DNA from: an uncultured Phycisphaerales bacterium
GTDB lineage: Bacteria > Planctomycetota > Phycisphaerae > Tepidisphaerales > Tepidisphaeraceae
Assembly: GCA_963844715.1 (NCBI GenBank)
Contig: CAWJPJ010000007.1
Location: 1,360,534-1,424,533 of the forward strand
Direction: 5' to 3'
DNA length: 64,000 nucleotides
Made by a program: the position numbers and the translations under genes. The notes beneath the pieces were generated by a model. The model made no database searches and was not told the origin of the DNA. It saw only the letters and a list, made by a program, of their open reading frames with translations. How positions within the stretch are numbered: the stretch's first letter is position 1; every line of letters starts with the position of its first letter. This document shows positions 3,827 through 64,000 of the stretch, one piece after another.

Positions 3827-3950
3827 TCGATTAGGATTACGATTATGATGATGATTAGGAGGGGATGTCCAGTTCGGAGTTGCCGGGGGAGGGCGCGAAG
3901 GGGCGCGCTTGAGTGTGAAGGTGTGAAGGTGTGAAAGTGGGAAAGTGGGA
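3827..3950 (+). repeat. Dispersed composite repeat, copy 1 (GATTAN-type 6-mers plus GTGTGAAR 8-mers)
   Basis: tcgattaggattacgattatgatgatgatta...ttgccgggggagggcgcg...gtgtgaa repeats; matches 6461-6575. Confidence 0.85.
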
Positions 3951-4012
3951 AGTGTCGGGGTCGGTGCGTAGCTCGTGTTTAATGCTCGCAAAATCAAAAA
4001 AAACACGCCGGT

Positions 4013-4090: not shown

Positions 4091-4660
4091 ATGCAACTCA
4101 GCTATCAATTCAATATCGAAAAAGCCGTGCAGGCGATGTCGTATTTCGCCCAGAAATTGGGCGAAGTCGAGAAGATCAAGCTCATCAAGCTGATTTACCT
4201 TGCCGATCGAGAACACTTCATTCGAACCGGAGCGCCGATTACCGGCGACAGGCAAGTGGCGATGCCTTACGGACCGGTTCCGTCCTGCACGCTGGACCTT
4301 ATCAATGGGCTGGTTGACGGGGCCGATCAACTCGCGTATCGATACTTGACCGTCAAGAATAACAAGATTCGTCCGCATAAATCGGCAGGCACTTCGGCCC
4401 TCTCAGACGACGAGCTCGACACCCTTAAGAAAATATTTAAAGAGCATGGCAAGAAGAATGCCTGGGCGCTGGCTAGTGAGACCCATCGTTTGCCCGAGTA
4501 CATCGCCTGCTATGTTGAGGGTACGTCCACTCCGATCCCATACGAGTGCATCGCGCAAGTGTCGGGTGACAAACGTCGATTCCGCCACGACCGGGTAGTC
4601 ATTCCGGGGGAGTTGCTTGCGTCGATGAAGCAGACCATCGGGCCGGGATCTGATCTCTAG
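4091..4660 (+). CDS. Panacea (DUF4065/SocA/GepA-like) antitoxin
   Basis: KLIKLIYLADREH..TGAPITGD..AMPYGPVPS family signature. Confidence 0.85.
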   Translation: MQLSYQFNIEKAVQAMSYFAQKLGEVEKIKLIKLIYLADREHFIRTGAPITGDRQVAMPYGPVPSCTLDLINGLVDGADQLAYRYLTVKNNKIRPHKSAGTSALSDDELDTLKKIFKEHGKKNAWALASETHRLPEYIACYVEGTSTPIPYECIAQVSGDKRRFRHDRVVIPGELLASMKQTIGPGSDL

Positions 4661-6035
4661 CAGGACGCTGAAAAACTCGGGAGTTGGCGCATTTTCCTGT
4701 CTGTTGGCCGCTTTTCAATGGCGGGTTCCATCTCGGATCGTTCCAAGGGCTTCAGTTCGTTCGAGTTCGTTGGCGGATTGCATGCCCAGGTTGAGTTTCA
4801 CACGGTACTCAGGTTGCGCATCCGGATCAGATTGAACGCCGCCCCGGCCAGGTGGGCCTGCTGGCCGGTTTTTGAATGTCCGATCAACCGGGTGCGATAC
4901 AGGCCGCCGATCGTCTTGGCCCAGCCGATCCATTCCTCGATCTTCTTGCGGCAACGCTGGCTGATGGCGTAACCGAGGGTCTTGGCGCGCCGACGCATCC
5001 GCTGGCGGGCCGCGATGTTGGCTCGGTTCTTCCAGCGATAGGCGGCGGTGTCGCCGCCGATCTTGCCCTCCTTCACCGCCACGTGCGGACGGATTCTTCT
5101 TCGCTCCAGCCCACGCAACAGCGGACCCTGGTCGTACCCCTTGTCGGCCCCAACCGTCTTGGGTTTGAGCCCAAAACGTTTCTTGACCCGATCGATCAGC
5201 GACAACGCGGTGACCGGCTCGCTGTTCTCCAGCGGCGAGTTGACTTCCACCGCCAGCACCAGCCCGTGGCGGTTCTCCACGATCGCGTGCAGCGCATGGC
5301 TGAGCAACGCCGGCTTGCCGTCGCTCTTGCGGACCAGCTTCGCGTCGGAATCGGTGGTTGATTCGTGGGTGTCGTTGGACCGCTTCTGGCCGTGGAAGTC
5401 CACCTCGGCGTTGCGGCCCTTAAAACCGTTGTTATCTCCCGCATCATTGTCTTTTTTGTCCTTTTCATCCCTGGGTTTGAAGCTCTTGATCGACGCATAC
5501 GCCTCGATCAGCGAGCCATCCACCGAGAAGTGGTCGGGGCTGACCAGTCCCGCGGCGATGGCCCGACGCACCGTGCCGTCGAAAAACGCGCCGATCAGCC
5601 CGTGCTCTTCCAGCCGCCCGCGATTGTGCGAGAAGACGGTGGCGTCGAATACCTCTTCGTCGATCCGCAGGTCCAAAAACCAACGGAACAGCAGGTCGTG
5701 ATCAATCCGTTCCACGAGCTGCGCCTCGGAGCGAATCGAATAGATCGATTGCAAAAGCAACGCCTTGATCAGCCGCTCCGGCGGCACGCTGGGCCGGCCT
5801 TCGGCCGCGTAGGCGGCATCAAAACGCCGACTCATGGCCTTCAAGTCTTCATCGACCATGCGCTTCACGGCCCGCAGCGGATGATCAGGACGGACGCGTT
5901 GTTCCAGATCGATGGCCGCGATGAACAAAATGGATTGGGGATCGGCCTTGCCTCGCATGAATGACCTCCGTGTCTGGGTGTCACACAGTTCAGCGCCACC
6001 GAGAACATTCGTCAAGAGGGTTTTTCAGCGTCCTG
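4661..6035 (-). mobile_element. IS5-family insertion sequence, 1375 bp, copy 1
   Basis: 16-bp terminal inverted repeat CAGGACGCTGAAAAAC; CTAG target duplication at 4657-4660 and 6036-6039; encodes a DDE transposase. Confidence 0.95.
4798..5958 (-). CDS. IS5-family DDE transposase
   Basis: GRPSVPPERL, FSVDGSLIEA, TVGADKGYD and RKKIEEWIGW motifs. Confidence 0.95.
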   Translation of the reverse strand: MRGKADPQSILFIAAIDLEQRVRPDHPLRAVKRMVDEDLKAMSRRFDAAYAAEGRPSVPPERLIKALLLQSIYSIRSEAQLVERIDHDLLFRWFLDLRIDEEVFDATVFSHNRGRLEEHGLIGAFFDGTVRRAIAAGLVSPDHFSVDGSLIEAYASIKSFKPRDEKDKKDNDAGDNNGFKGRNAEVDFHGQKRSNDTHESTTDSDAKLVRKSDGKPALLSHALHAIVENRHGLVLAVEVNSPLENSEPVTALSLIDRVKKRFGLKPKTVGADKGYDQGPLLRGLERRRIRPHVAVKEGKIGGDTAAYRWKNRANIAARQRMRRRAKTLGYAISQRCRKKIEEWIGWAKTIGGLYRTRLIGHSKTGQQAHLAGAAFNLIRMRNLSTV

Positions 6036-6460: not shown

Positions 6461-6575
6461 TCGATTAGGATTACGATTATGATGATGATTATGAGGGGAA
6501 CTCGAGATCGGGATTGCCGGGGGAGGGCGCGGCTTGGGTGTGAAAGTGTGAAAGTGTGAAAGTGTGAAGGTGGGC
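6461..6575 (+). repeat. Dispersed composite repeat, copy 2
   Basis: First 31 nt identical to 3827-3857, followed by GTGTGAAA tandem units. Confidence 0.85.
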
Positions 6576-6624
6576 GAGCGCGAATCGATAGACGTTAGGG
6601 ACGACCTTCTCCTTTCAAGAATCG

Positions 6625-6670
6625 CCCCTCACCCGTCCTGCGGAAACTAGCGGGATAAAGGGAGAGGGGA
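6625..6670. repeat. Palindromic repeat family A (CCCCTCACCC..CCTGCGGAAACTAGCGG..GGGAGAGGGG)
   Basis: Same module recurs near 9070, 19208, 42050 (reverse complement) and 46035 (reverse complement). Confidence 0.7.
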
Positions 6671-6749
6671 CTAAAATACATCCGCGCCCGTGTTTGATAG
6701 GCGGCGGTTGGGGCAAAGTGCGGCGGCTCCATTTGTCGATAACGCCACT

Positions 6750-7749: not shown

Positions 7750-7840
7750 TCCCTCCCCTGCCCTCCCCCGGAGTACCGGGGGAGGGAGGGAAAAGAACCC
7801 TCACCCCGGCCCTCTCCCTGAGTACATGGAGAGGGAGTGA
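7750..7840. repeat. Two family A hairpins with GAGTAC loops
   Basis: ccctcccccggagtaccgggggaggg and ccctctccctgagtacatggagaggg. Confidence 0.85.
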
Positions 7841-8949: not shown

Positions 8950-9237
8950 TAACCGCCCGCGAGTACGCTAGAGACGCGGAGAGCGCGGAGATAAGAAAAG
9001 AATGAATTGCTTTTCAAAAAAAGAGAATTGAATTTGCTCTGCTGAAATCCTTGGGTGCTCGGAGCAGAACCCCCACCCATCGTGCCGAAACTGGCGGATG
9101 GGGACAGGGGGTGCTCCCCCTGAGTACAGGGAGAGGGGGAAAGAGGATTCTCGGACGGAGGATTTCATCAGAGCAAATTGAATTCTCTGCGTCTGTCTCC
9201 ACGATCTCCGCGGCTCTAGCGTACTCGCGGGCGGTTT
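8950..9237. repeat. Nested inverted-repeat (MITE-like) element containing a family A repeat
   Basis: Outer IR aaccgcccgcgagtacgctagag / ctctagcgtactcgcgggcggtt; inner IR agagaattgaatttgctctg..gaaatcc / ggatttc..cagagcaaattgaattctct. Confidence 0.8.
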
Positions 9238-9295
9238 TTAATCTTCGATTTGGAAATGATTCTGCGCCGCCGAAGTCCTAGCGTTCTCGGGGCAG

Positions 9296-9342
9296 AACCC
9301 CCACCCCAGCCCTCCCCCTGAGTACATGGGGAGGAGGAAGAG
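9296..9342. repeat. Family A hairpin
   Basis: cccccaccccagccctccccctgagtacatggggagg. Confidence 0.8.
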
Positions 9343-13279: not shown

Positions 13280-13729
13280 ATGATTCCTCAATACGCTTAC
13301 TCGCTGAGTGGCGATCAGTATCGCGGGCCGTACGCGACGCGCGAAGAGGCGCTGGCGGCGGCGATTGAATCGGCGCGGCGTTCGCCGGCGTCGCCGCAGT
13401 CGGTGTTTGTGGGGCGGATGGTCGCGGCGGATGCGAAGGCGGGGGGACACGCACGAGCCATTTTGTCCAACATGGCGGCTCGCGCTCGGGAGGAATTTGG
13501 GGACGCGGCCGAGCAATATCTGAACGCGATTCCCAAAGCGCAAGTTGAAAATCTGGATCAAGCGCTGGAACTGGTCATTCGCAACTGGCTGCAGAATGCG
13601 GATTTGATGCCGACGTTCTTTAAGGTAGAAGCGATCGGAGAATATCCGGTTCCGGCGTCCAAGGAAGACCGCGATCCCGGCGATTACCGGGAAGTTCAGG
13701 AAATCGGCAGCGGCGAGTACGGCGGTTAA
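13280..13729 (+). CDS. Hypothetical protein
   Basis: 149-aa ORF with GGAGG RBS and coding-like codon usage. Confidence 0.7.
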   Translation: MIPQYAYSLSGDQYRGPYATREEALAAAIESARRSPASPQSVFVGRMVAADAKAGGHARAILSNMAARAREEFGDAAEQYLNAIPKAQVENLDQALELVIRNWLQNADLMPTFFKVEAIGEYPVPASKEDRDPGDYREVQEIGSGEYGG

Positions 13730-13741
13730 TTCCTGGCCTCG

Positions 13742-14140
13742 TACCGTTCCCTTGTGCGCGGTCTGGCGCATTTGTATTCTCACTTCGTTCATAACGGCAT
13801 TGGCACAGAGGACACAGAGGACACAGAGTGCACAGAGAGAGAAAGCTAATCTTTAATTTGTCTTCTCTGTGGCCTCTGTGTGGCTCTGTGTCCTCTGTGG
13901 TCGCATTTATTCCCGCGTGTTCGACCGCGGTTTGGGGGTACGGGGGATAATTCCTCTCTTCATACCGTTCACTTGTGCGCAGTCTGGCGCATTTGTATTC
14001 TCACTTCGTTCATAACAGCATTGGCACGGAGGACACGGAGCACACAGAGAGCACACAGAGAGAAAGCTAATTTTTAGTTTGTCTTCTCTGTGGCCTCTGT
14101 GTGGCTCTGTGTCCTCTGTGGTCGCATTTATCCCCCCGCG
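13742..14140. repeat. Tandem duplication (period 221 bp) of a ~175-bp unit carrying a family B hairpin (CACAGAGGA 9-mers)
   Basis: 13742-13916 and 13963-14140 are near-identical. Confidence 0.9.
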
Positions 14141-19139: not shown

Positions 19140-19282
19140 TCTTTCGCTGGTTTCCGGGGGATGGGGTGAGGGGTCTTTGCGGGGATTGTGCCTCACTCTA
19201 AGACTTGCCCCTCACCCGTCGTGCCGAAACTAGCGGAAGGGGACAGGGAGTGCTCTCCCCGGATTACCGGGGAGAGGGGATA
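19140..19282. repeat. Family A repeats in inverted arrangement
   Basis: cgctggtttccgggggatggggtgagggg ... cccctcacccgtcgtgccgaaactagcgg ... ctctccccggattaccggggagag. Confidence 0.8.
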
Positions 19283-38406: not shown

Positions 38407-39993
38407 TTATTTCGTCGCGATGGTGATTAAGTTGGTGCGGACGTCGCGGCCGCATTTTACGAAAGTGAATTGCGTCAGGTCCAGGTTGGTGAAATGCTCG
38501 TCGTGGACCAGGATCTGGTTGATGGTGTCGTTTTTGTCGCCGCGATCGTAATCGTGAGCCATGCGAACCATGAGGATGCGGGCGTGATCGCCGGGCGGCG
38601 TGTAGCCGGGGATTTGGTCGAACACGGTCGGGCGATGATCGCCGAGGCGCTGGTCGGAAAGCACCCAGACCTTGGGATGATCCGGCAGATAAAACGTCAA
38701 CTCCGAGGCGTATTCATAGTCGGTGGTATAGATCGGCGAGTCCTGGCGGACGTCCTGGACCTTTTGCGCCAGTTCGCGCCAGCCGAAGAGGCGGTCCCAT
38801 TGGGGATTGCCGAGCTTTGGGCTGATGGTCATCATGATTTCGGGGATGTGGATGACGATCAGGCAGATCACCGCCACACCGACGCCGGTGCGGGCCCACC
38901 AGGTACGCCAGCCCTTCCAGTTTTCGGATAAATATTGCGCCGCCAGGAGGGTTGCGGGCATGTATCCGAAGAGAGGCCAGTTGCCGTTGCCGCGCTTGTG
39001 GATGGAGGTCAGGGCGAAAAAGATCAGGGGGAGGGCGCCGCAGACGACGAGCAATTTTTGCGGCATCGTCGCGCGGCCGCGAATCATCCGCCACGCAAAG
39101 ACGGCGAGGACGAACACGCACAAGGCGCAAATCATCGGCGTCACGATGGCAAGCTGCGAGCCGAAATAATCGAGGACTTTAAGGAGCTGGTCGAGGCGGG
39201 TGTTGTCGTCGCTGGACAGGCCGTGATGAAGTTGGAACTTGAAGCTGATCCAGCCGTGGGTGGCGTTCCAGATGATGACGGGGGAAAAGACGGCGAGTGT
39301 GACGGCCGCGGCGATCCAGGGCCAGCGCGCTGCCAATTGCCTCCGTCCCTGGCGATCGATCAAGAGGGCGATTAATACCGAGACGCCGAGGAACACGCTG
39401 GTGTATTTGGAATCCAGGGCCAAACCGAGGAAGAGGCCGAAGGCGAGCCAGAGGAGGGCCTCGCGTTCATTTCCCTCCCCCGGAGTACCGGCGGAGGGTG
39501 TCAGGAAAACCAGAAGCACGCACGCAAGCGCCGCCGTCTGGAAAAACATTGCGGGCGTGTCGGGCGTGGCGATCGAGCCCATGATTCCGACCATGGGGCT
39601 GAGAAGGAGACTCACGGCCACGAATCCGGCCGCGAGTTTGTCGGGGCAGAGTCTTAGTGAGACTCGCCAGAGAATCAGGACCATTCCGACGGCGAGAATT
39701 CCCATTGGCCAGCGAACGCCGAATTCGGTGTTTCCCTCGAAATGAGTCCCGAGTCGAATAAGCCACGCGATAACGGGCGGATGATCGACATACGAGAGGG
39801 CGGGATGCTGCGACCAGACCCAGTAATAGCATTCGTCCGGGACAAGCTGGCGGAAGTTGGAAAAGACCCATCGGGCGACGAGGGTGAGGCCCGCTAGCGC
39901 CAAGACGCCGGCCGTTCCCGGCCAGCGGCGCGGTTTGGCGGGCGCCGGCTGCGCGGCGATTTCAGGGGCCGAAGTTACCGGCGTTTGGCTCAT
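38407..39993 (-). CDS. ArnT/PMT-like membrane glycosyltransferase (GT39/GT83)
   Basis: PDECYYWVWS, SYVDHPP, TPDTP, SKYT, FSPVIIWNA. Confidence 0.9.
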   Translation of the reverse strand: MSQTPVTSAPEIAAQPAPAKPRRWPGTAGVLALAGLTLVARWVFSNFRQLVPDECYYWVWSQHPALSYVDHPPVIAWLIRLGTHFEGNTEFGVRWPMGILAVGMVLILWRVSLRLCPDKLAAGFVAVSLLLSPMVGIMGSIATPDTPAMFFQTAALACVLLVFLTPSAGTPGEGNEREALLWLAFGLFLGLALDSKYTSVFLGVSVLIALLIDRQGRRQLAARWPWIAAAVTLAVFSPVIIWNATHGWISFKFQLHHGLSSDDNTRLDQLLKVLDYFGSQLAIVTPMICALCVFVLAVFAWRMIRGRATMPQKLLVVCGALPLIFFALTSIHKRGNGNWPLFGYMPATLLAAQYLSENWKGWRTWWARTGVGVAVICLIVIHIPEIMMTISPKLGNPQWDRLFGWRELAQKVQDVRQDSPIYTTDYEYASELTFYLPDHPKVWVLSDQRLGDHRPTVFDQIPGYTPPGDHARILMVRMAHDYDRGDKNDTINQILVHDEHFTNLDLTQFTFVKCGRDVRTNLITIATK

Positions 39994-41726
39994 CTTTGTT
40001 GCAATCGGACGGTCAACCAGATCGCGGCCGCCAGGACGATTACGTTTCCGCCCCAGATGAACGCGAGCCCGGTTAGCAGCGGATCGTGAAAGGAGGGACC
40101 GAGATCAAACGGGACGTGCGTCGCCGCCTGCTGGCCGCAGAAAATCAGGGTGATGCTGAGTAGCGCGGGGACGAAGCTCACGGCAAAGGCGTTGAGGACG
40201 TTCCCGCTTCTAAAGACGGTTCCCAAGCCGCTGCCGATCATGACGAGAATCAGGCAACTGAGGGCGAAGCTGGCTCGGCCATGCAGTTCACTGCGGGCGG
40301 AATTATTCACGGCGACCTGCTCATGATGCAGCCACATCGCATCGCTCTGGGTAATCGTCGGATCGTTCTGAAAATCGGCGACGCTTTTCTTTTCGACGGC
40401 CTTCACCTCCGCCGGCATCGGCTCGGAGAAGCTGCGGATAAAGCTGAGCCGTTCGCTGGGGCCCTCCTGGGTGTGGAGGAGCGTGTCGTAGAGTTCGATG
40501 CTTATGGTCACGCGATGCGCCAATCGGTCGGGTTTGGCGCGGATGTGAATTTCCTTTGCTTCGGCGGTGAGCGTGCGCTGCGAGCCGTGCGATTGCTCCA
40601 TCCAGACGGTTCGCGACTGGTCGCCGCGCGGCGGGGCGGTGACGATCAGTTCCGATCCGTCGCGCACGGATGATGCGCCGTCGCCGCCGATGCGGAAGGT
40701 GTCGGAATCGCCGACGGTGGGGAATACGTATCCGTTCGGCTCGCCGCGGTTGATCTGCGCGGAGATGAGATCGAGTGTTTTGGCTTCCTGCTCGCGGGCC
40801 ACGACGTCGATGAGGATATTTTGCACGCGTTCGCTGTGGCTCGGATCATGGGCCAGTTCGGTGAGCCGCTGAACGTTGAGGAATTTGACGTTTTCGTGAA
40901 TGAGAGACGGGATTTCGACGGGTCCGAAAGTTGTATCCGCGACCCCCGCCTGCACATTTCCGTAGAATTCGCGCGGGAACTTCAGTCCGTCGGTGAGATG
41001 GACGGTGAGGGTCGCCATCGGCACCGCCAGATCGCCCCAGGGCCGCTCCTCGCCGCTGCGTTCGATCGTAACCATGGCGCGCCGGGCCAGGGAAAAATCG
41101 CGCGGGATGTGCAGGTCCGGATTGGCCTCGGTGGGCGATTCATAGGTGACGATCGCGGGCCCGATCAGCTCGACTTGCTGGATTCGCGGATTATTCGGAT
41201 CCGGCGGCGGCAGATACGCCGACTCGGCAAAAACGTGCCAGCTTCCACCCATCCCCTGAAAATCCACGGCGTGATCGCGCTCGACGTCGCTGGCGATCAC
41301 CTTGGCGATATTCGAGTAAACGATCTCCTGAACCCGCAGAGAAAAGACCGGCACCACGAAGCAGAGCATGATCAGACTGATCGTCGCCACGATCAAACCC
41401 AGAACCAGGGCCGGCAGGGCGATCGAAAATCCGCGCATGGAAATATAGGAGATGCCGCCGGCGCGCATGGCCGTCAACTCGTTGTCGGAGGCGAGCCGTC
41501 CGTAAACGATCGTCGCGGCCAGGAGCGCGGCGACGGGGAGGGAATAGGTGCTCATCGCGGGGGTGAGATAGAGGAGCATCTGGTTGACCTGCCGCATGTC
41601 CAGGCCGTTTTCAGTCAACGGGCGCAGCAGCCCGGCGAAGCTCATGATCCCCGCCAGGGCGCAGGTGGTCAGAGCAAACACGCGAAGCAGCGGCCAGAAA
41701 ATGTACCAGAAGAGCGTTTTGCTCAT
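39990..41726 (-). CDS. lptF: LPS export permease of the LptF/LptG family (LptF-like, enlarged periplasmic region)
   Basis: TLFWYI, YGRLASDNELTAMRAGGIS, ELHGRASFALSC. Confidence 0.85.
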   Translation of the reverse strand: MSKTLFWYIFWPLLRVFALTTCALAGIMSFAGLLRPLTENGLDMRQVNQMLLYLTPAMSTYSLPVAALLAATIVYGRLASDNELTAMRAGGISYISMRGFSIALPALVLGLIVATISLIMLCFVVPVFSLRVQEIVYSNIAKVIASDVERDHAVDFQGMGGSWHVFAESAYLPPPDPNNPRIQQVELIGPAIVTYESPTEANPDLHIPRDFSLARRAMVTIERSGEERPWGDLAVPMATLTVHLTDGLKFPREFYGNVQAGVADTTFGPVEIPSLIHENVKFLNVQRLTELAHDPSHSERVQNILIDVVAREQEAKTLDLISAQINRGEPNGYVFPTVGDSDTFRIGGDGASSVRDGSELIVTAPPRGDQSRTVWMEQSHGSQRTLTAEAKEIHIRAKPDRLAHRVTISIELYDTLLHTQEGPSERLSFIRSFSEPMPAEVKAVEKKSVADFQNDPTITQSDAMWLHHEQVAVNNSARSELHGRASFALSCLILVMIGSGLGTVFRSGNVLNAFAVSFVPALLSITLIFCGQQAATHVPFDLGPSFHDPLLTGLAFIWGGNVIVLAAAIWLTVRLQQR

Positions 41727-43229
41727 TTAATAAGAGTAGTTGCCAGTTGCCAGTTGCCAGTTGCCAGTTGGGAGGAGATGGCGTCGCTGAGTTTTGCGAT
41801 TCCCGGTTCGATCTGGTCGGGGGCGACCTGGCCGAAACTTAGGCGCATAAAATTTTTGGGGAGGCGGCCGGTTTCGTCGGGTTGGAAGCAGTAATCGCCG
41901 GGGACGTAGATCACGCCGCGATCGACGCAGGATTTGAAGAGCGGCGCTTCGCGCGAGGTGTCGATTCCCGGCGGCAGTGTGAGCCAGATGTATAAGCCGC
42001 CGTGCGGGTGGGTCCAGTGGATCTCCTCATCTTGTCCCCTCTCCCTGTCTTCCGCTGGTTTCCGCAGGATCGGGTGAGGGGACTCTTGTCCCCTCTCCCT
42101 GTACTCGGGGAGAGGGTTAGGGTGAGGGGCAATTCCCGCGCGACCGGCAGAACCCTCACCCCAGCCCTCTCCCTGAGTACATGGAGAGGGGGAAAGAGGG
42201 GACGCCGCAGCTGGCATGTGTTTTTTCAGCGACTCCAGCATCGCATCGCGTTTTTTTCGATAGCTTTCGCACAGTCGCTTCACCTGCTCCTGATAGAGGC
42301 CGCTTTGCATTGCCTCCAGCGCGATGTGCTGGGCGAGGCTGCTGGAGCCGAAGTCGTGATTCCCCTTTTGGTGCATGACAGCCTCTAGCACGTCCGGCGG
42401 CATCGCCGTGTAACCCGTCTTGATTCCTGGGGCGAACGGCTTGCTGAATGTCTGGGTCAGAATCGTAAACTCGTTGGTTTCGTCGAACGATTTGATCGAC
42501 GGCAAAGCCGGGCCGTCATAGCGCAATTCGCGATAGGCGGCGTCTTCGAGAATCAAGATCCGGCGCCGGCGGCTGAATTTTTTGGCGATTTCGAGCAGTC
42601 TTTTCCGCCTTGGAAGGGCAAGCGTCAACCCCGTCGGGTTCTGGTAAAAGCTCTGGACGTAGATGAGCTTGACCTTTTCGAGTTTTCCTTCGCGATCGAT
42701 TTTTTCCAGGAGCTTTTCGATCGCCTCGGGGTCCATTCCGTCCTCGTCGATCGGCACGGTCCGCACATCGGCTCCGAAGGACGCCAGCGTTCCCGTGTAA
42801 ACGAAATAAGAGGGGTTGGCGGCGATGACGATGTCGCCGGGGTCAACCAGGACGTCGCCGATGAGATAAAGGGCCTGCTGGGAGCCGGTGGTGATGACGA
42901 TGTCGCGCTCTGAGACGGCGAAATCGTTGGCCGGTTTGTTCTCCAGGGTTTCAAGATGTTTGACGGCGGCTTTCCGCAGGCCGGCCAGGCCCTGGGTCGT
43001 GTCGTATTGCAGCGCCGCCCGGGCTCGCGGGGTCGGCCAAAATCTTCTGCGTGATCGTCTGCGACGCCTCGATGGGCAGGGTTAGGGGATCGACCAATCC
43101 AGCGGCCAGGTTGATGAGCTTCGGATTCGCCACCACCGCCGCCATCAAAAAGCTGATCGGCTGCTCGCCGGTGCGGCGGGCCTTCGCGGATAAGCCGATT
43201 TCCGGGGGTTTGGGTTCTTGTGAGGACAT
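41723..43229 (-). CDS. PLP-dependent class I/II aminotransferase (LysN/MocR-like catalytic domain); frameshift near 43020; contains an in-frame repeat insertion
   Basis: TTGSQQAL, YQNPTG, ILEDAAY, TFSKPFAPG, MRLSF. Confidence 0.92.
41738..41770. repeat. Family C 7-mer tandem repeat (GTTGCCA) inside the aminotransferase 3' end
   Basis: gttgcca x4; translated as QLATGNWQLAT. Confidence 0.85.
42030..42205. repeat. Cluster of family A repeats in-frame within the aminotransferase
   Basis: cccctctccctgtactcggggagaggg and ccctcaccccagccctctccctgagtacatggagaggggg. Confidence 0.9.
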
Positions 43230-44060: not shown

Positions 44061-44086
44061 CGGTCCGTAGCCGGTATTTGCCTTGA

Positions 44087-44143
44087 CTGGCAACTGGCAA
44101 CTGGCAACTCGCAACTATTCCAAACAACTGGCAACTGGCAACT
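44087..44143. repeat. Family C 7-mer tandem repeats (CTGGCAA) upstream of alaS
   Basis: ctggcaa x3, then x2. Confidence 0.85.
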
Positions 44144-44166
44144 TCTTCCCTCATAATTCTCGCCCC

Positions 44167-47100
44167 ATGACTTCGGCCGAGATTCGCCAGCAATTTCATC
44201 GATTTTTTCGTGCAGAAGCACGGGCACACGTTCGTGCCGTCGTCGCCGGTCGTGCCGCTGGATGATCCGACGCTGCTGTTCACCAACGCGGGGATGAATC
44301 AGTTCAAGCCGATTTTTCTGGGGCAGGAAAAGCGCACCTATACGCGGGCGGCCAATACGCAAAAGTGCATCCGGGCCGGGGGGAAGCACAACGATCTGGA
44401 CGACGTCGGGCCGCAGCCGGCGGCATCACACGTTTTTTGAAATGCTCGGCAACTGGAGCTTTGGCGATTATTTCAAGCGCGGGGCGATCGAGATGGCGTG
44501 GGAGCTGCTCACCAAGGTCTGGAAGATCGATCCCACGCGATTGCATGCGACGTGCTACGAGGGGGATGAGAAAAACGGCATTCCCCGCGATGAGGAGGCG
44601 GCCAAGTTGTGGAAGGAAATTGCCGGGCTGCCGGACGATCAAATCCATTATTTCGGCAAGGACAATTTCTGGGAGATGGGGGACACCGGGCCGTGCGGGC
44701 CTTGCAGCGAGATTCACATCGACCGCACGCCGGATAAAAGCGGCGGCAGATTCGTCAACGGCGACGATCCGCGGGTGATGGAAATTTGGAATCTGGTTTT
44801 CATCCAGTACAACCGGGATGCGGCCGGGAAACTGACGCCGCTGCCGGCCAGGCACGTGGATACGGGGATGGGGTTCGAGCGGATTTGCCAGGTTTTGCAG
44901 AGGAAAGAGGACAATTACGCGACGGATTTGTGGACGCCGCTGTTTGATCGCATATCTGAGATTTCAAATTTCAAATATGCGGGCAAATTCCCGAAGACCA
45001 ACGTCGCCGACCCGGCGGCCGAGGCGGCGGATGAACAGCTTCGGCATGATATTGCGTTTCGAGTCGTGGCGGATCATGCGCGATGCCTGACGTTTGCGCT
45101 GACGGATGGGGCGGTGCCGAGCAACGAAGGGCGCGGGTATGTGCTGCGGCGGATTCTGCGCCGCGCGGCCCGGTTTGGGCGGCAGCATTTGGATCTGCAC
45201 GAGCCGTTCCTGCATGAACTGGTGCCCGTAATCGTCGATTCGATGGGGGCGGCGTTTCCGGAATTGGAGAAGAATCCGAAGCATGTGATTGATCTTATAA
45301 AGGAGGAGGAGGTTTCGTTCGGGCGGACTTTGGATCGCGGGATAGCGCTATTCGAATTCGCGGCCGCCAACGAGATTGGTAAACAATACGCTGAGTTGCT
45401 GGGGCGCGGCTGGGTATTAAGCCCTGGGCAACCCGTGCGCGTCGCGGAAGATTCAGCCCGAGGACGAGCCGCAGCCTTAGAGCAAATCTCGTCGGAGCTT
45501 AACTTTATCAATGGCGAAACGCGGGAGAGGATTGGGCCAATTCCTACTGACCAAGCGCTCTCCGAACTCAGCGGCCGACAAAAGGAATTGCGGATCGACG
45601 CGGCGAGCGCTTTCAAATTGCACGACACCTACGGATTCCCCATCGATCTGACGCGCATCATGGCCGAGGAGCGCGGCCTGAAGGTCGATCTCGACGGGTA
45701 TGAAAAATTGATGGAGCGCGCGAAGGAACTGGCGCGGGCGGGCGGGAAGACGGAGGAATCTTCGCTGGCGGAGTTGTCGCCCGATTCGGTGTCGCAGCTT
45801 GCGCAAACTGGCGTGAAGGCCACGGACGATCATTTCAAATTTTCGCACGAGCCGATCCAGGCGACGGTGATGGCGATTTGGAATGGCGACGACCTGGGTC
45901 TTTCGCCCGCCTCGGCGATTGAAGACGAAGAATTGGCGATCATTCTGGATCGCACGAATTTTTACGCGGAAATGGGCGGGCAAGTTGGCGACAAAGGGGA
46001 ACTTCGTCTTCTGATCCGTTCTCCTCAGTCCTCTGCTAGCTTCCGCGGGATGGGTGAGGGGTCTTCTCATAATGACGAAACGCCCCCCACCCCAGCCCTC
46101 CCCCAGAGTACTGGGAGAGGGGGCAATACTTTCGACGTCCAAAATACTCGGTCCGTCGGCGGGTTTGTGCTGCATATCGGGCGTTTGCGGAGTGGGCAGA
46201 TTCATGTTGGGGAGCGCGTCGAGGCCGTTGTCCTCGGTGGTCGCGAACGAACGGAGAAAAATCACACGAGCACGCACATCGCCAATTGGGCTTTGCGTGA
46301 AGTCCTGGGCGACGGCGTTCAGCAAAAAGGCTCGCTTGTCGATGCCGAAAAACTCCGGTTCGATTTCTCCCATGGCAAGTCGATGGCGGATGAGGAAATC
46401 TCGAAAGTCGAGGATTTGGTCAATCGAGAGATTGGGAAAAAATTGCCTGTCTACGCCGAGGAAGCGGAGCAGGGTCAGGCATTGAAGATCAACGGGCTGC
46501 GGGCCGTGTTTGGTGAAAAATATCCGCCGCGCGTGCGGGTTGTGTCCATCGGCGTCCCTGTTAAGGATTTGCTCGCGGATCCCGCGAATCCGAAATGGCG
46601 GCAATACTCCATCGAATTCTGCGGCGGGACGCATCTGAAAAATTCGGATCAGATCGCTCAATTCGTCCTGACGGCCGAGGAATCTGTCAGTAAGGGGATT
46701 CGGCGAATCGTGGCCGTCACGGGAGATTCCGCGGGGGCCGTTAAGCACTCCGGCGAGGAGCTTGAAAAATCGATCGAACACGCACGGCTAGCGCCTGAGG
46801 AACAGTTGCCGAGCTTGATCAACACGTTGCAAAAATCGGCGGGGGGGCAAATTCCGCTCCGCGTGAAACGCCGCGCCCAGGTGGCTATCGCGGAGCTTCA
46901 GGCGAAGCACAAAGCCTTCGAAAAATCCAAAGCCTCGCGCGGGGGGCAAGTGGATGCGGTTAAAGTGGCCGGCGAGTTACTGGCCGAAGCCAACGGTCCG
47001 GTCATCGTCGGGCAGATTCCAGGCGCGAGCGACGAGCAGCTTCGCTCCGCCATGGATTCCCTGAAAAAGAAATCCCCTAGCCACGCGATCATGCTGGCGT

Positions 47101-47315
47101 CGGCCATCGACCAGAAGGTGACGTTCGTGGCGGCGGTCAGCGACGATCTCATTGCCAAAGGCCTTAAGGCGGGTGATTGGGTGAAACAGGTCGCCGCCGT
47201 CGCGGGCGGCGGCGGAGGGGGGAGGCCGCAGATGGCGCAGGGAAGCGGGAAGGAGCCCGCTGCTATTGAAGCCGCTTTGGATAAGGCACGCGACTTGGCA
47301 AGGGGAGTCGGTTGA
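44167..47315 (+). CDS. alaS: Alanine--tRNA ligase (frameshifts near 44195 and 44412; two in-frame insertions)
   Basis: [63 protein letters not shown]. Confidence 0.98.
46030..46125. repeat. Family A repeat in-frame within alaS
   Basis: gctagcttccgcgggatgggtgagggg ... ccccccaccccagccctcccccagagtactgggagaggggg. Confidence 0.88.
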
Positions 47316-47317
47316 CC

Positions 47318-47455
47318 CCCGAAACCCGAAGCCCGAAACCGGAAATCCGAATCAAACCCGAATGCCCGAATGATTGAATTAGCGAAATGGCCCCTTTCGG
47401 TCATTTGGGCATTTGGGATTGATTCTGGTTTCTGGTTTCGGGCTTCTGGTTTCGC
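47318..47455. repeat. Family D hairpin (CCGAAA/CCGAAT 7-8-mer arms)
   Basis: gaaacccgaagcccgaaaccggaaatccgaatcaaacccgaatgcccgaatga with a complementary right arm. Confidence 0.85.
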
Positions 47456-47468
47456 GGTTCGGCCGTTC

Positions 47469-47754: not shown

Positions 47755-47833
47755 GTTCGTTGTTAGTTGCTAGTTGCTAGATTCACTAGCGCAACCCGTG
47801 CAACTAGCAACTGACAACTAGCAACTGGCAACT
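47755..47833. repeat. Family C-like hairpin (GTTGCTA / TAGCAAC 7-mers)
   Basis: gttagttgctagttgctag ... ctagcaactgacaactagcaactggcaac. Confidence 0.8.
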
Positions 47834-47847
47834 CCGTAGGAGGATCA

Positions 47848-49872: not shown

Positions 49873-49888
49873 AGTTTGGAAAGCAACG

Positions 49889-50018
49889 GCATTGGCACAG
49901 AGAGCACAGAGGACACAGAGGACACGGAGAAATGCAAAAAGAGTTGGATGACAAAAATAAAAAAAACTGATTTTCCTCTCTGTGTTCTCTGTGCTCTCTG
50001 TGTCCTCTGTGCCAATGC
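49889..50018. repeat. Family B hairpin between fabH and fabD
   Basis: gcattggcacagagagcacagaggacacagag ... ctctgtgctctctgtgtcctctgtgccaatgc. Confidence 0.9.
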
Positions 50019-50038
50019 TGTTGTTTTGAATCATTAGG

Positions 50039-50941
50039 ATGGCAAATAGCCTCTATATTTTGTGTCCCGGGCAAGGGCGCAAGCGGTCGGCATGGGCAAG
50101 GCCGCGTTCGACGCGTCGCCCGCCGCGCGCGGGTTTTTCGAAACCGCGAATCGGGTCCTGGGGTTCGACCTTACGGCAATTTGCTTTTCCGGGCCGGAAG
50201 AGCGGTTGAATCAAACGGATGTCAGCCAGCCGGCGCTTTACACGGCCGGCGTCGCGAGTTTTCAGCATGCGATCGAAAAAGGGATGTTCGACGCGGCGGC
50301 TGTTACGTCGTATGCGGGACTCAGCCTGGGCGAATATACGGCCCTGCACCTGGCGGGGGCGTTTGGGTTTGAGGAAGGTCTGAAACTGGTGGCCGCTCGC
50401 GGCAGATATATGCAGGAGGCCGCGGTGGCATCGCCCAGCGGAATGGTCGCGATCCTGGGCGCTGATGAAGGGGCGGCCAAAGCGATCTGCGACAGCGCCG
50501 CCGGCGACGAAGTGCTGGTTCCGGCGAATTTCAACGCGCCGGGCAGATCGTGCTCAGCGGTTCAAACCCGGCCTGCCAAAGGGCCCTGGCGGCGGCGGAA
50601 GCTGCGGGATTTAAGGCGACCGCACTAAAAGTCGCCGGTGCGTTTCACAGCCCCCTGATGCAATCGGCGGCCGATAAGATGAAAGCGGAATTGGATAAAG
50701 TGAATATCAGCGTTCCGAAGCGCGGGTCTATTCGAATGTCACCGCCGAAAAGCACGGCGACCCCGATTCGATCAAGCGCCGGCTCGTCGAACAGATTGTC
50801 AGCCCGGTGCGCTGGGAACAAACCATGCAGGCCCTGTTGGCCGGCGGCGAAGCGCGATTCATCGAGTTATCGCCGGGCCGCACCCTCGCGGGCCTCGCCA
50901 AGCGAATAAATCGACGATTACCGGTGGAGAGTCTCGGATAA
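50039..50941 (+). CDS. fabD: Malonyl-CoA:ACP transacylase (frameshifts near 50078, 50540 and 50720)
   Basis: PGQGAQ, SQPAL, GLSLGEY, VAGAFHSPLM, SPVRWE. Confidence 0.95.
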
Positions 50942-50947
50942 TGAAAC

Positions 50948-51073
50948 AGCATTGGCACAGAGAGCACAGAGGACACGGAGAGCACAGAGAATTCAATGCA
51001 ACAAAGCAAAAAACAAATTTCGGATTTTCTTCTCTGTGTTCTCTGTGCTCTCTGTGATCTCCGTGCTGATGCT
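50948..51073. repeat. Family B hairpin between fabD and fabG
   Basis: agcattggcacagagagcacagaggacacggag ... ctctgtgctctctgtgatctccgtgctgatgct. Confidence 0.9.
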
Positions 51074-51107
51074 TTTCGCCTTTACTTGATCGCAGGAGCA
51101 ATCGGAA

Positions 51108-53499: not shown

Positions 53500-53626
53500 G
53501 GGAAAACCAGAAACCAGAAATCCGAATGACGAATCAAGCCCGAATGACCGAATGACCAAATGAATGCGGCGAGCTTTTAGGGCATTCGGGTTTGATTCGG
53601 GTTTCGGACTTCTGGTTTCGGATTTC
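53500..53626. repeat. Family D hairpin after fabF
   Basis: accagaaaccagaaatccgaatgacgaatcaagcccgaatg ... cattcgggtttgattcgggtttcggacttctggtttcgg. Confidence 0.85.
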
Positions 53627-53689
53627 CCTCCAGGGGCCCCTTCCTATTGCGAATCAAATCGATGTGCCGATAATGTTTTATAGCCGTCG

Positions 53690-54031
53690 TTGTTTTTGCG
53701 TCGGCATGTGAGGAACGGATGCCCGTCATGCACGCCCAGGCTGTCCCCGCCGCCACTTCCCAGACGGAACTGGAGCCGCATTTTGAAGCTTGAGGTGCCG
53801 ATCATCGTTCGCCTTGCCGAACGGCGGCTCAATGTGCATGAAGTCATGCGGCTGGGGGTCGGGGCGATCATCGAGTTTTCCAAAAGCAACGAAGAGCCGC
53901 TGGAATTGATGGTCAACAACAAAGTCATCGGTCAGGGCGAAGCGGTGAAAGTCGCCGAGAACTTCGGGCTGCGAATCACGCAAATCGGGGACGCCAAGCA
54001 GATCGCCAACGCGCTGGGCGGAGAGCACTAA
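53690..54031 (+). CDS. FliM/FliN C-terminal (SpoA) domain protein; start uncertain
   Basis: ILKLEVPIIVRL, EPLELMVNNKVIGQGEAVKVAENFGLRITQI. Confidence 0.85.
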   Translation: MFLRRHVRNGCPSCTPRLSPPPLPRRNWSRILKLEVPIIVRLAERRLNVHEVMRLGVGAIIEFSKSNEEPLELMVNNKVIGQGEAVKVAENFGLRITQIGDAKQIANALGGEH

Positions 54032-54081
54032 AGATAACATTTCGCGCGAAGCAAGTCGGGGGTGGACTTTTCCGATATTAA

Positions 54082-54099
54082 ATGTATATTTATATACAT
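54082..54099. promoter_or_regulatory. Palindromic operator of the brnT-like operon
   Basis: ATGTATAT-TT-ATATACAT perfect inverted repeat at the toxin start. Confidence 0.7.
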
Positions 54100-54367
54100 G
54101 GTGGTTCAGTTTCGGTGGAACGACTGGAACCTGGAACACCTTGCCAAGCACGGATGCGATTACCGCGAGGCGGAAAGCGTTGTGAGGCGGCCGTCGCGCG
54201 GCTTTCCGCGCAAGATCGGCGACGGCAAATGGCTCGTGGAAGGCAGAGGCCAGGGCGACCGGTTGTTGAAAGTGATCTATATTTTTTCACCGCCGGGAGT
54301 CATTTACGTGATACACGCGATGCCGTTGAGGATAGGTCGAAGGCATCGCCGCAAGCGGCGTCGTTGA
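54098..54367 (+). CDS. BrnT-like ribonuclease toxin
   Basis: FRWNDWNLEHLAKHG...EAESV...GR..LLKVIY...IYVIHAMPL. Confidence 0.8.
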   Translation: MVVQFRWNDWNLEHLAKHGCDYREAESVVRRPSRGFPRKIGDGKWLVEGRGQGDRLLKVIYIFSPPGVIYVIHAMPLRIGRRHRRKRRR

Positions 54368-54381
54368 ACCGAGGATGTGTT

Positions 54382-54733
54382 ATGAGCAAGAAGAATCGCA
54401 ACCGGACGTCGAAAGCCGATGTGGCGGCGGCAGCGCGCGCCTTGCGCCGGGAGTTCGATCGATTCATGTCATTGTCCGACTCGGAAAAGACTGCGCGAGG
54501 CGGAGGCGGCGGCGAATGAGAGACACTCGCGCGCGTTGACGCCCGCCGAGCGGGAATTGTGGAAAAAAGCCAAGCGCTCCCTGGGCAGGCCCAAACGGGG
54601 TCGAGGGGCAAAGCCGGTGAACATCACCGTGGAACGCGGGCTGTTGGAGCGCGCGGATGCCTATGCCGAGCGACATGGGCTGACGCGGTCGCAGGTGGTC
54701 GCAAGGGGATTGGTCCTGGCGATTGCCGGGTAA
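54382..54733 (+). CDS. BrnA-like antitoxin with C-terminal ribbon-helix-helix (frameshift near 54490)
   Basis: GRPKRGRGAKPVNITVERGLLERADAYAERHGLTRSQVVARGL. Confidence 0.75.
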
Positions 54734-54764
54734 TCGAGATGCGCGACTGAGTCGGCGAACGGCG

Positions 54765-54820
54765 TTTCGGTCATTCGGGCATTCTGGTTTGATTCTGGTT
54801 TCGGGTTTCGGATTTCTGGT

Positions 54821-54822
<2 letters not shown>
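54765..54822. repeat. Family D half element (right arm only)
   Basis: ttcggtcattcgggcattctggtttgattctggtttcgggtttcggatttctggttt. Confidence 0.75.
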
Positions 54823-62581: not shown

Positions 62582-62628
62582 GCAAATTGTGGAGTACGCA
62601 CCCCCGGAAATGCGGAAACGGGGTCTAG

Positions 62629-64000
62629 CAGGACGCTGAAAAACTCGGGAGTTGGCGCATTTTCCTGTCTGTTGGCCGCTTTTCAATGGCGGGTTCCATC
62701 TCGGATCGTTCCAAGGGCTTCAGTTCGTTCGAGTTCGTTGGCGGATTGCATGCCCAGGTTGAGTTTCACACGGTACTCAGGTTGCGCATCCGGATCAGAT
62801 TGAACGCCGCCCCGGCCAGGTGGGCCTGCTGGCCGGTTTTTGAATGTCCGATCAACCGGGTGCGATACAGGCCGCCGATCGTCTTGGCCCAGCCGATCCA
62901 TTCCTCGATCTTCTTGCGGCAACGCTGGCTGATGGCGTAACCGAGGGTCTTCGCACCGACGCATCCGCTGGCGGGCCGCGATGTTGGCTCGGTTCTTCCA
63001 GCGATAGGCGGCGGTGTCGCCGCCGATCTTGCCCTCCTTCACCGCCACGTGCGGACGGATTCTTCTTCGCTCCAGCCCACGCAACAGCGGACCCTGGTCG
63101 TACCCCTTGTCGGCCCCAACCGTCTTGGGTTTGAGCCCAAAACGTTTCTTGACCCGATCGATCAGCGACAACGCGGTGACCGGCTCGCTGTTCTCCAGCG
63201 GCGAGTTGACTTCCACCGCCAGCACCAGCCCGTGGCGGTTCTCCACGATCGCGTGCAGCGCATGGCTGAGCAACGCCGGCTTGCCGTCGCTCTTGCGGAC
63301 CAGCTTCGCGTCGGAATCGGTGGTTGATTCGTGGGTGTCGTTGGACCGCTTCTGGCCGTGGAAGTCCACCTCGGCGTTGCGGCCCTTAAAACCGTTGTTA
63401 TCTCCCGCATCATTGTCTTTTTTGTCCTTTTCATCCCTGGGTTTGAAGCTCTTGATCGACGCATACGCCTCGATCAGCGAGCCATCCACCGAGAAGTGGT
63501 CGGGGCTGACCAGTCCCGCGGCGATGGCCCGACGCACCGTGCCGTCGAAAAACGCGCCGATCAGCCCGTGCTCTTCCAGCCGCCCGCGATTGTGCGAGAA
63601 GACGGTGGCGTCGAATACCTCTTCGTCGATCCGCAGGTCCAAAAACCAACGGAACAGCAGGTCGTGATCAATCCGTTCCACGAGCTGCACTCGGAGCGAA
63701 TCGAATAGATCGATTGCAAAAGCAACGCCTTGATCAGCCGCTCCGGCGGCACGCTGGGCCGGCCTTCGGCCGCGTAGGCGGCATCAAAACGCCGACTCAT
63801 GGCCTTCAAGTCTTCATCGACCATGCACTTCACGGCCCGCAGCGGATGATCAGGACGGACGCGTTGTTCCAGATCGATGGCCGCGATGAACAAAATGGAT
63901 TGGGGATCGGCCTTGCCTCGCATGAATGACCTCCGTGTCTGGGTGTCACACAGTTCAGCGCCACCGAGAACATTCGTCAAGAGGGTTTTTCAGCGTCCTG
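62629..64000 (-). mobile_element. IS5-family insertion sequence, copy 2 (1372 bp as assembled)
   Basis: Preceded by CTAG at 62625-62628; same terminal inverted repeats; right end coincides with the window end. Confidence 0.95.
62766..63923 (-). CDS. IS5-family transposase, copy 2 (two apparent frameshifts)
   Basis: Matches copy 1 except at three GCGC sites. Confidence 0.9.

Follow-up and report, generated by a model that had tools for sequence, protein, structure and literature searches.

In-frame insertion of a BoxC-type repeat into an aminotransferase gene of an uncultured planctomycete, and the association of this repeat with DUF559 nuclease genes

A gene for a PLP aminotransferase in an uncultured Phycisphaerales bacterium carries a palindromic, in-frame insert which is absent from its orthologues. 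On balance, this insert is probably the shell of a cassette that lacks its gene, copied in with the help of a DUF559 nuclease and likely translated as a tolerated loop predicted to be disordered. A full cassette would consist of two inward-facing BoxC-type repeats enclosing a DUF559 nuclease gene, and the aminotransferase insert would correspond to the empty shell of such a cassette plus one further unit. The direct evidence comprises filled and empty sites, the geometry of shells and cassettes, the association of nuclease and repeat, recent copying, the depletion of copies from coding DNA and the position of the loop in a structural model. Coordinates (Table 1) are those of the window, the whole 64,000-nucleotide stretch of DNA that was analysed.

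The insert is placed between KKHMP and WTHPHGG, and translation of the minus strand reads LKKHMP-AAASPLSPSPCTQGEGWGEG...PHPNPLPEYRERGQESPHPILRKPAEDRERGQ-DEEIHWTHPHGG. The frame is open from 41723 to 43036 and the minus-strand ORF 41723-42766 is free of stops across the insert. The gene starts at about 43229, its 5' part lying in another frame, with a frameshift at about 43030, upstream of the insert. Alignment with relatives gave 59 extra residues compared with 20 of 21 orthologue loci and 57 compared with one distant locus. The site was empty at all 21 loci, both same-genus genomes included. One of the 21 is from G004, an unpublished genome that also enters the family tallies, and no claim hinges on it by itself. 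Both the in-frame addition of about 60 residues and the empty orthologous site are in agreement with the original prediction.

Terminal inverted repeats are present, the arms of the insert pairing along about 45 bp, and the RNA fold of the insert (-112 kcal/mol, z = -8.25) was equalled in stability by none of 200 shuffles. Arm 2 is identical to the copy in a TPR protein gene (50/50 nt) and to that in trmB (48/48 nt), and two of the identical arm copies sit within other genes. As copies 100% identical to arms 1 and 2 (47-50 nt) are found elsewhere in the genome, copying has been recent. No target duplication was seen among orthologues of about 73% protein identity or at the sole duplicated pair of loci in the genome, where it is undefinable since both loci are filled, and no strain-level empty site was found in the data compared.

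Table 1. Features of the insert, its host gene and other copies of the repeat in the window
Feature	Position	Strand	Basis or detail
Host gene, class I PLP aminotransferase (LysN/MsAT/KAT-II-like fold)	41723..43229	-	PF00155 match
In-frame insert, 177 nt / 59 aa	42026..42202	-	orthologue alignment; ends +/- ~10 nt
BoxC/TM-type unit, arm 1; gene strand = SPSPCTQGEGWGEG	42153..42195	+	47/47 identity with copy on contig C8
Spacer, 22 nt, separating inverted arms	42131..42152	.	DUF559 gene position in full cassettes
BoxC/TM-type unit, arm 2; reads PHPNPLPEYRERG	42086..42130	-	identical copies in TPR protein gene and trmB
Third module, variant unit with GCGGAAAC hairpin; reads PHPILRKPAEDRERG	~42030..42085	-	90-94% identity with three other copies
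In-frame inverted pair in alaS	45996..46131	+	unit 46082-46126
Decayed partial unit in PMT_2 glycosyltransferase gene (gene on minus strand)	39470..39500	+	~6 extra residues
Non-coding GCGGAAAC variant module	6617..6671	+	sequence
Non-coding direct pair of units	7752..7838	+	sequence
Non-coding variant-plus-unit composite and single unit	9070..9339	+	units 9114-9142, 9298-9339
Non-coding variant-plus-unit composite	19200..19282	+	unit 19253-19282

The window holds the three coding insertions that had been proposed: those in the aminotransferase and AlaRS genes and the decayed partial copy in the PMT gene. Intergenic copies had been placed at about 7750, 9070, 9296, 19140 and 6625. The first three were found there, but the fourth really lies at about 19200-19282 and the fifth consists of the GCGGAAAC module only.

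Several other families of dispersed repeats (7-mer and 8-mer tandem units and long inverted arms) occur in the window: at 41734-41770, 44086-44144 and 47796-47834; at 3899-3957 and 6516-6590; at 13717-14138 and 49880-51076; and at 47309-47465 and 53568-54822. They may resemble repeats around four-helix-bundle or GxxExxY genes. One 7-mer family overlaps the C-terminus of the aminotransferase (QLATGNWQLAT). At 4656-6024 and 62624-63989 a segment of at least 1.3 kb occurs twice in nearly the same sequence, the copies being separated by 58 kb; it is probably an insertion sequence. At about 45370-45590, alaS has an in-frame insertion of 72 residues in which no repeat signature was seen and which is absent from three aligned relatives.

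By its sequence, the repeat is a long-loop variant of BoxC/PIT/TMECO and not a RAYT-associated REP. The TMECO consensus of Holder et al. (2015) has a C-rich stem, a loop of 3-6 nt and two G-rich stems; it was found in 262 proteobacterial genomes and, in the available text of that account, has no assigned function and no nearby mobility genes (PMC4666352). Arm 2 matches the three 9-nt tracts (one C-rich, two G-rich) and the 3-nt second loop of the BoxC consensus. The published form with a 3-6 nt first loop had no match in the genome and a TMECO-type pattern with a 7-14 nt first loop had 62 (none in the reversed control), which makes this a long-loop variant; relatives carry short-loop forms too, and the repeat is therefore classed as a BoxC variant. 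Its units share with BoxC/PIT/TMECO the C-rich stem, the two G-rich stems, the 3-nt second loop, the occurrence of both single copies and inverted pairs and a patchy copy number among relatives (PMC4666352). They differ from BoxC, as far as the available description goes, in a first loop of 7-14 nt with a GAGTAC core rather than one of 3-6 nt, in the additional GCGGAAAC variant, in their planctomycete host, in their coding copies and in the linked DUF559 gene. BoxC is an intrastrand-triplex repeat (PMC4666352), and the planctomycete units are predicted from their sequence to be of triplex type. A search of Rfam for the identity of the repeat gave 24 matches, mostly to microRNA hairpin models and none at gathering score.

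A profile search found 194 units in the genome (E ≤ 0.1) and none in the reversed genome, and the units were grouped into 147 clusters. Some in-gene matches to the short GCGGAAAC pattern looked like chance and were excluded by limiting the count to clusters that had a profile match (147 of 194). The strict repeat pattern is present in 79 of 120 other genomes of the same family; a pattern looser by one base also occurs in 24 of 150 genomes from elsewhere in the phylum. Unit-containing blocks (of about 66 and 88 nt) are amplified in tandem in one ValRS loop (L153, G126) and in the genome studied here (G000, C4:84501-84839).

Inverted pairs within 500 nt comprise 28 with tails inward and one with tails outward; 17 of the 28 have gaps of 22-26 nt. 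The longest tail-inward pairs (375, 402 and 406 nt) coincide with three DUF559 genes, and there are no other long pairs. These are the only DUF559 matches in the genome, one of them frameshifted in the assembly, and each of the three lies within an inverted pair whose third strands face the gene. The nearest named relative of the DUF559 protein comes from a Tepidisphaeraceae MAG. The suggestion that a DUF559-like nuclease might be flanked by the repeat was therefore correct, but the alternative partner that had been named, RAYT, was not supported: none of five Y1_Tnp loci has an adjacent unit (one has a pair about 1.3 kb off). The DUF559 ORFs between the repeats stand alone at about 120-140 residues, and the enzyme is a PD-(D/E)XK, Vsr-like nuclease of 100-120 residues in which a transposase fold is absent. 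The protein matches 3HRL (E 8.7e-22) and, weakly, 3R3P (E 0.0085), which is the Vsr-like domain of the homing endonuclease I-Bth0305I (PMC3239194). The Escherichia coli homologue YcjD was linked to Vsr earlier (PMC1189080).

The association extends across the family. Tail-inward arms were present on both sides at 25 of 29 DUF559 loci, the best-scoring ones from 29 same-family genomes, and at the family's DUF559 loci there were 62 repeat matches in the 13.0 kb beside the genes compared with four in 66.6 kb farther away. Among genomes with a strong DUF559 match (E ≤ 1e-19), 53 of 56 have the repeat; among those without, 26 of 64 do (kin not being independent), and the medians are 13.5 and 0 repeat matches, respectively. 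Twelve genomes with at least 20 repeat matches have no strong DUF559 match and three with a strong match have no repeat-pattern match, in draft genomes and with the strict pattern. Beyond the family, eight of 16 DUF559 loci score at least 10 bits on the repeat profile on one side or both; visual inspection showed related purine/pyrimidine hairpins at most of the others and little at one or two. DUF559 flanks in other taxa (L067, L070, L061-L068) retain the layout of a hairpin plus third strand, with a small hairpin, resembling the GCGGAAAC variant, inserted in the second loop. In E. coli K-12 a full unit lies about 165 nt past the 3' end of ycjD (DUF559) and a partial unit at the 3' end itself. 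Literature searches on BoxC, DUF559 and ycjD, with subscription journals and supplements outside their scope, found no link between BoxC and DUF559, and the available text of one paper mentions ycjD without repeats (PMC12817139). Partial DUF559 matches also occur in open frames of about 950-1000 and 1500-1800 residues (G044, G095, G007, G100, G098), and these may represent either cassettes inserted in frame or Vsr-like domains fused in the ordinary way.

In the explanation that we favour, the Vsr-like nuclease may nick or cut the folded repeat or its target, and repair would then copy a unit or shell from another copy. Copies would land widely, and within genes only those that are in frame, stop-free and in permissive loops would last; these loops may later be refilled by BoxC-type and by unrelated repeat families. 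The loop peptides are probably near-neutral passengers.

It is less probable, although a serious alternative, that the repeats are spread by host processes (slippage, gene conversion or repair of folded DNA), that DUF559 is a lodger homing into inverted pairs and that the coding copies are ordinary tolerated repeat insertions. The 12 repeat-rich genomes without a strong DUF559 match point this way, as do the tandem amplifications in the G126 ValRS loop and at C4:84501-84839, the variation of arms at one site according to the variant typical of each genome and the instability near repeats, without mobility genes, described in the available text of Holder et al. (PMC4666352). Against this are the presence of the repeat in 53 of 56 compared with 26 of 64 genomes, the one tail-inward geometry that shells and cassettes have in common and the covariation of flank structure with the nuclease gene across taxa. 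Association, geometry and covariation are compatible with either direction, yet the coupling is tight.

Few of the copies lie within genes. A strict hexamer test placed 10 of 147 clusters in an open coding frame, compared with 912 of 2000 random points (46%). This is an approximately sevenfold depletion, so coding copies are filtered survivors. The test missed tsaD, trmB and alaS, all confirmed by alignment, and one of its ten calls (C6:1199003) is probably upstream of the true lpxD start. A looser listing adds coding copies beyond these ten; the number genome-wide is about 10-20 of 147 clusters. The expectation of many more cases genome-wide therefore holds in that there are more, but they form a depleted minority. 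Ten clusters lie between stretches of coding DNA but carry a frame shift or a stop; in most of them the upstream stop falls at the edge of the repeat and the copy looks intergenic, and two are ambiguous. Units are stop-free in at least four of six frames in 112 of 150 cases, so that survival within genes is easy.

Scanning of 17 candidate hosts gave Pfam families for 12. The alignment of filled with empty sites held in all eight hosts tested, namely the aminotransferase, ValRS, AlaRS, TsaD, QueA, TrmB, PMT_2 and a TPR-GT41 protein, which bears out the idea of a spreading repeat that adds loops to housekeeping genes; the loops would be translated and tolerated. Orthologous sites were empty in TsaD (4/4), QueA (4/4), TrmB (5/5) and PMT_2, whose insert is small (5/5). 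The best orthologue of the TPR-GT41 protein is empty, and another relative bears its own copy in that linker. (TPR-GT41 glycosyltransferase paralogues number 40-121 matches per genome in G001, G002, G019, G100 and G129.) In DnaE2 the profile match is split at the repeat copy. The genes valS, alaS and tsaD each have a single full-length match in the genome, which argues that the filled alleles work. When the insert was used as a database query, seven other proteins were found among 24 candidates, and the six inspected (DnaX, two MiaB, AstA, an ABC ATPase and a PMT) carry the inverted pair.

The same loops have been filled repeatedly in relatives. The empty-site query for ValRS matched in 113 of 121 genomes and the loop is filled in at least 43 of these; 44 loops were inspected, about seven further split matches being outside the count. 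All 44 segments are stop-free multiples of three, 43 holding 22-131 codons and one holding 13. A BoxC-type unit is present in 14 of the 44, and the rest hold other hairpins or 7-mer tandem repeats, several of them nested, by types assigned by eye. Filled, empty and BoxC states are scattered across a ValRS tree (a quick IQ-TREE search of 64 rows, with the loop left out and a second ValRS clade sampled by two rows). The BoxC state changes 12 times on this tree, at least eight of the changes being forced by well-supported branches, and clusters no more strongly than in shuffles (159 of 500 as low). In AlaRS, which matched in 118 genomes, the pair was present in five of 23 inspected. The five pairs use identical two reading frames with genome-typical arm variants, and one is frameshifted downstream of the pair. 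In most of 78 other genomes, the aminotransferase loop region had its full or almost full length; among eight loops inspected, one had an unrelated tandem repeat of about 34 residues and four had short additions. A second aminotransferase loop, after PGEYC, has other insertions in L272 and L273 (G008, G098). The ValRS, AlaRS and aminotransferase fillings indicate that permissive loops gather whichever repeat is active and, as unrelated repeats fill the same loops, coding copies need nothing specific to the BoxC-type repeat.

That the loops are adaptive, either as selected protein surfaces or as translational pause or regulation modules acting through a stable mRNA hairpin, is improbable. The many ValRS loops filled in frame, the two reading frames shared by AlaRS in five genomes and the hairpin of -112 kcal/mol would fit such a role, but the ValRS contents are unrelated to one another, span 22-131 codons and are scattered on the tree, and coding copies are depleted about sevenfold.

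In the aminotransferase, Lys199, Asp165 and Arg398 (alignment numbering) are invariant, and the host shows no rate excess over the first same-genus orthologue (32 compared with 31 lineage-specific changes) and a somewhat higher number of changes, though not significantly so, than the other (at most 32 compared with 20, chi-square ≤ 2.8). Mapping of the insert onto a predicted structure, which the original prediction had called for, placed it in a low-confidence loop with the fold intact: in the AlphaFold2 model (20-row alignment, pTM 0.81), pLDDT < 50 was confined to the insert (model residues 281-335) and the tail, the insert being a coil that links a helix and a strand. The best PDB matches of the model were KAT-II/MsAT/LysN aminotransferases (rmsd about 1.9-2.2 Å). 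The insert is thus predicted to be a surface loop on a kept aminotransferase fold.

Single-base frameshifts are seen in many genes, some of them essential (43030 and 44410 in the window, tsaD, queA, trmB and one DUF559 gene), and are likely to be long-read indel errors of the assembly. The frameshift near 43030 is probably also an assembly error, because alaS has a comparable shift in its 5' part, at a point where a related contig is one base shorter. It is very improbable that the host is a dead gene gathering repeats or that the insert is an assembly artefact. Such a view could appeal to the 43030 frameshift and to four low-depth contig sets, in which no contig listed bridges either the aminotransferase insert or that frameshift. 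It is countered by the similar frameshift in essential alaS, by the related contig one base short there, by the frames of tsaD, queA and trmB, likewise cut in the assembly, and by the host's lack of a rate excess; the alaS insert is bridged by an independent 1619-nt contig with no differences, and inserts of the same type occur in many independent assemblies. Least probable of all is that the insert is excised from RNA or protein, or that a RAYT/IS200-type transposase mobilises the repeats, as happens with REPs: the inverted arms give a long perfect stem that could be excised and there are five Y1_Tnp genes in the genome, but all 44 ValRS segments are in frame and stop-free, as expected if translated, no Rfam family reached its cut-off and no Y1_Tnp locus has an adjacent unit.

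REPINs commonly take the form of inverted dimers with short spacers, and such dimers are also common in the planctomycete genome. A further likeness to REP/REPIN-RAYT systems is an enzyme gene flanked by a repeat family which the enzyme is thought to maintain (PMC3733652), but here the enzyme is a PD-(D/E)XK, Vsr-like nuclease and not an HUH transposase, and the Y1_Tnp genes are unflanked. The catalytic domain is related to that of the EDxHD homing endonuclease I-Bth0305I; in contrast to EDxHD enzymes, DUF559 has no N-terminal DNA-binding region and no intron or intein, is bounded by DNA repeats and is accompanied by many gene-less shells. Terminal inverted repeats are shared with MITEs, but there is no cognate transposase with matching ends and the long tail-inward pairs hold DUF559 genes only. 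We propose tentatively, with rather less than even confidence, that BoxC/triplex repeats together with stand-alone DUF559 nucleases make up a class of selfish element so far unrecognised, an analogue of REP-RAYT whose shells refill loops of essential enzymes. The Vsr-like nuclease would recognise the folded triplex ends, other nuclease-linked repeat families would refill loops as well, and the loops would act as recurrent landing pads.

The system is not as undescribed as was first thought: the repeat belongs with BoxC/PIT/TMECO as a variant (PMC4666352), and repeats inserted in frame have been published (PMC3733652), both as RPE and as intragenic REPs. Di Nocera et al. (2013) described intragenic GTAG/CGTC REPs, in-frame dimers or grouped hairpins which add 20-82 residues to hosts including DnaE2 and tRNA synthetases, with recB filled at the same site in two species (PMC3733652). 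The planctomycete inserts are likewise in-frame repeat dimers with DnaE2 and tRNA synthetase hosts. They differ in belonging to another superfamily, no GTAG/CGTC tag having been seen in the planctomycete units, in having a Vsr-like nuclease rather than RAYT as partner and in the refilling of the same loop across dozens of genomes by several repeat types. Rickettsia palindromic elements (RPE) and Betaproteobacterial repeat elements are also in-frame palindromic inserts (PMC3184786, PMC3733652), and Delihas reviews others (PMC3184786). In-frame insertion with an empty orthologue site (eight hosts) and a predicted loop position resemble RPE, but the unit is short, modular and of triplex type, with a candidate autonomous cassette, unlike RPE as these are described in the text available; no RPE model was among the NCBIfam matches listed for the host proteins. 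Elevated indels in PVC proteins have been described, in the accessible part of that report, without reference to repeats (PMC3000692).

BoxC/TM repeats have been on record since the 1990s, and the available account assigns them neither a function nor a way of spreading (PMC4666352). From the geometry of the cassettes a candidate enzyme emerges; E. coli K-12 has it as ycjD, so that the question can be tested directly in a laboratory strain. With the coding shells, essential enzymes acquire peptide loops de novo, and the series of at least 43 natural fillings in the ValRS loop lends itself to studies of how insertions are tolerated and turned over. Annotation is affected as well: peptides derived from the repeat break up profile matches and make unrelated proteins look homologous. 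If BoxC-type repeats and DUF559 do form a selfish element, permissive loops would be a running source of new protein sequence.
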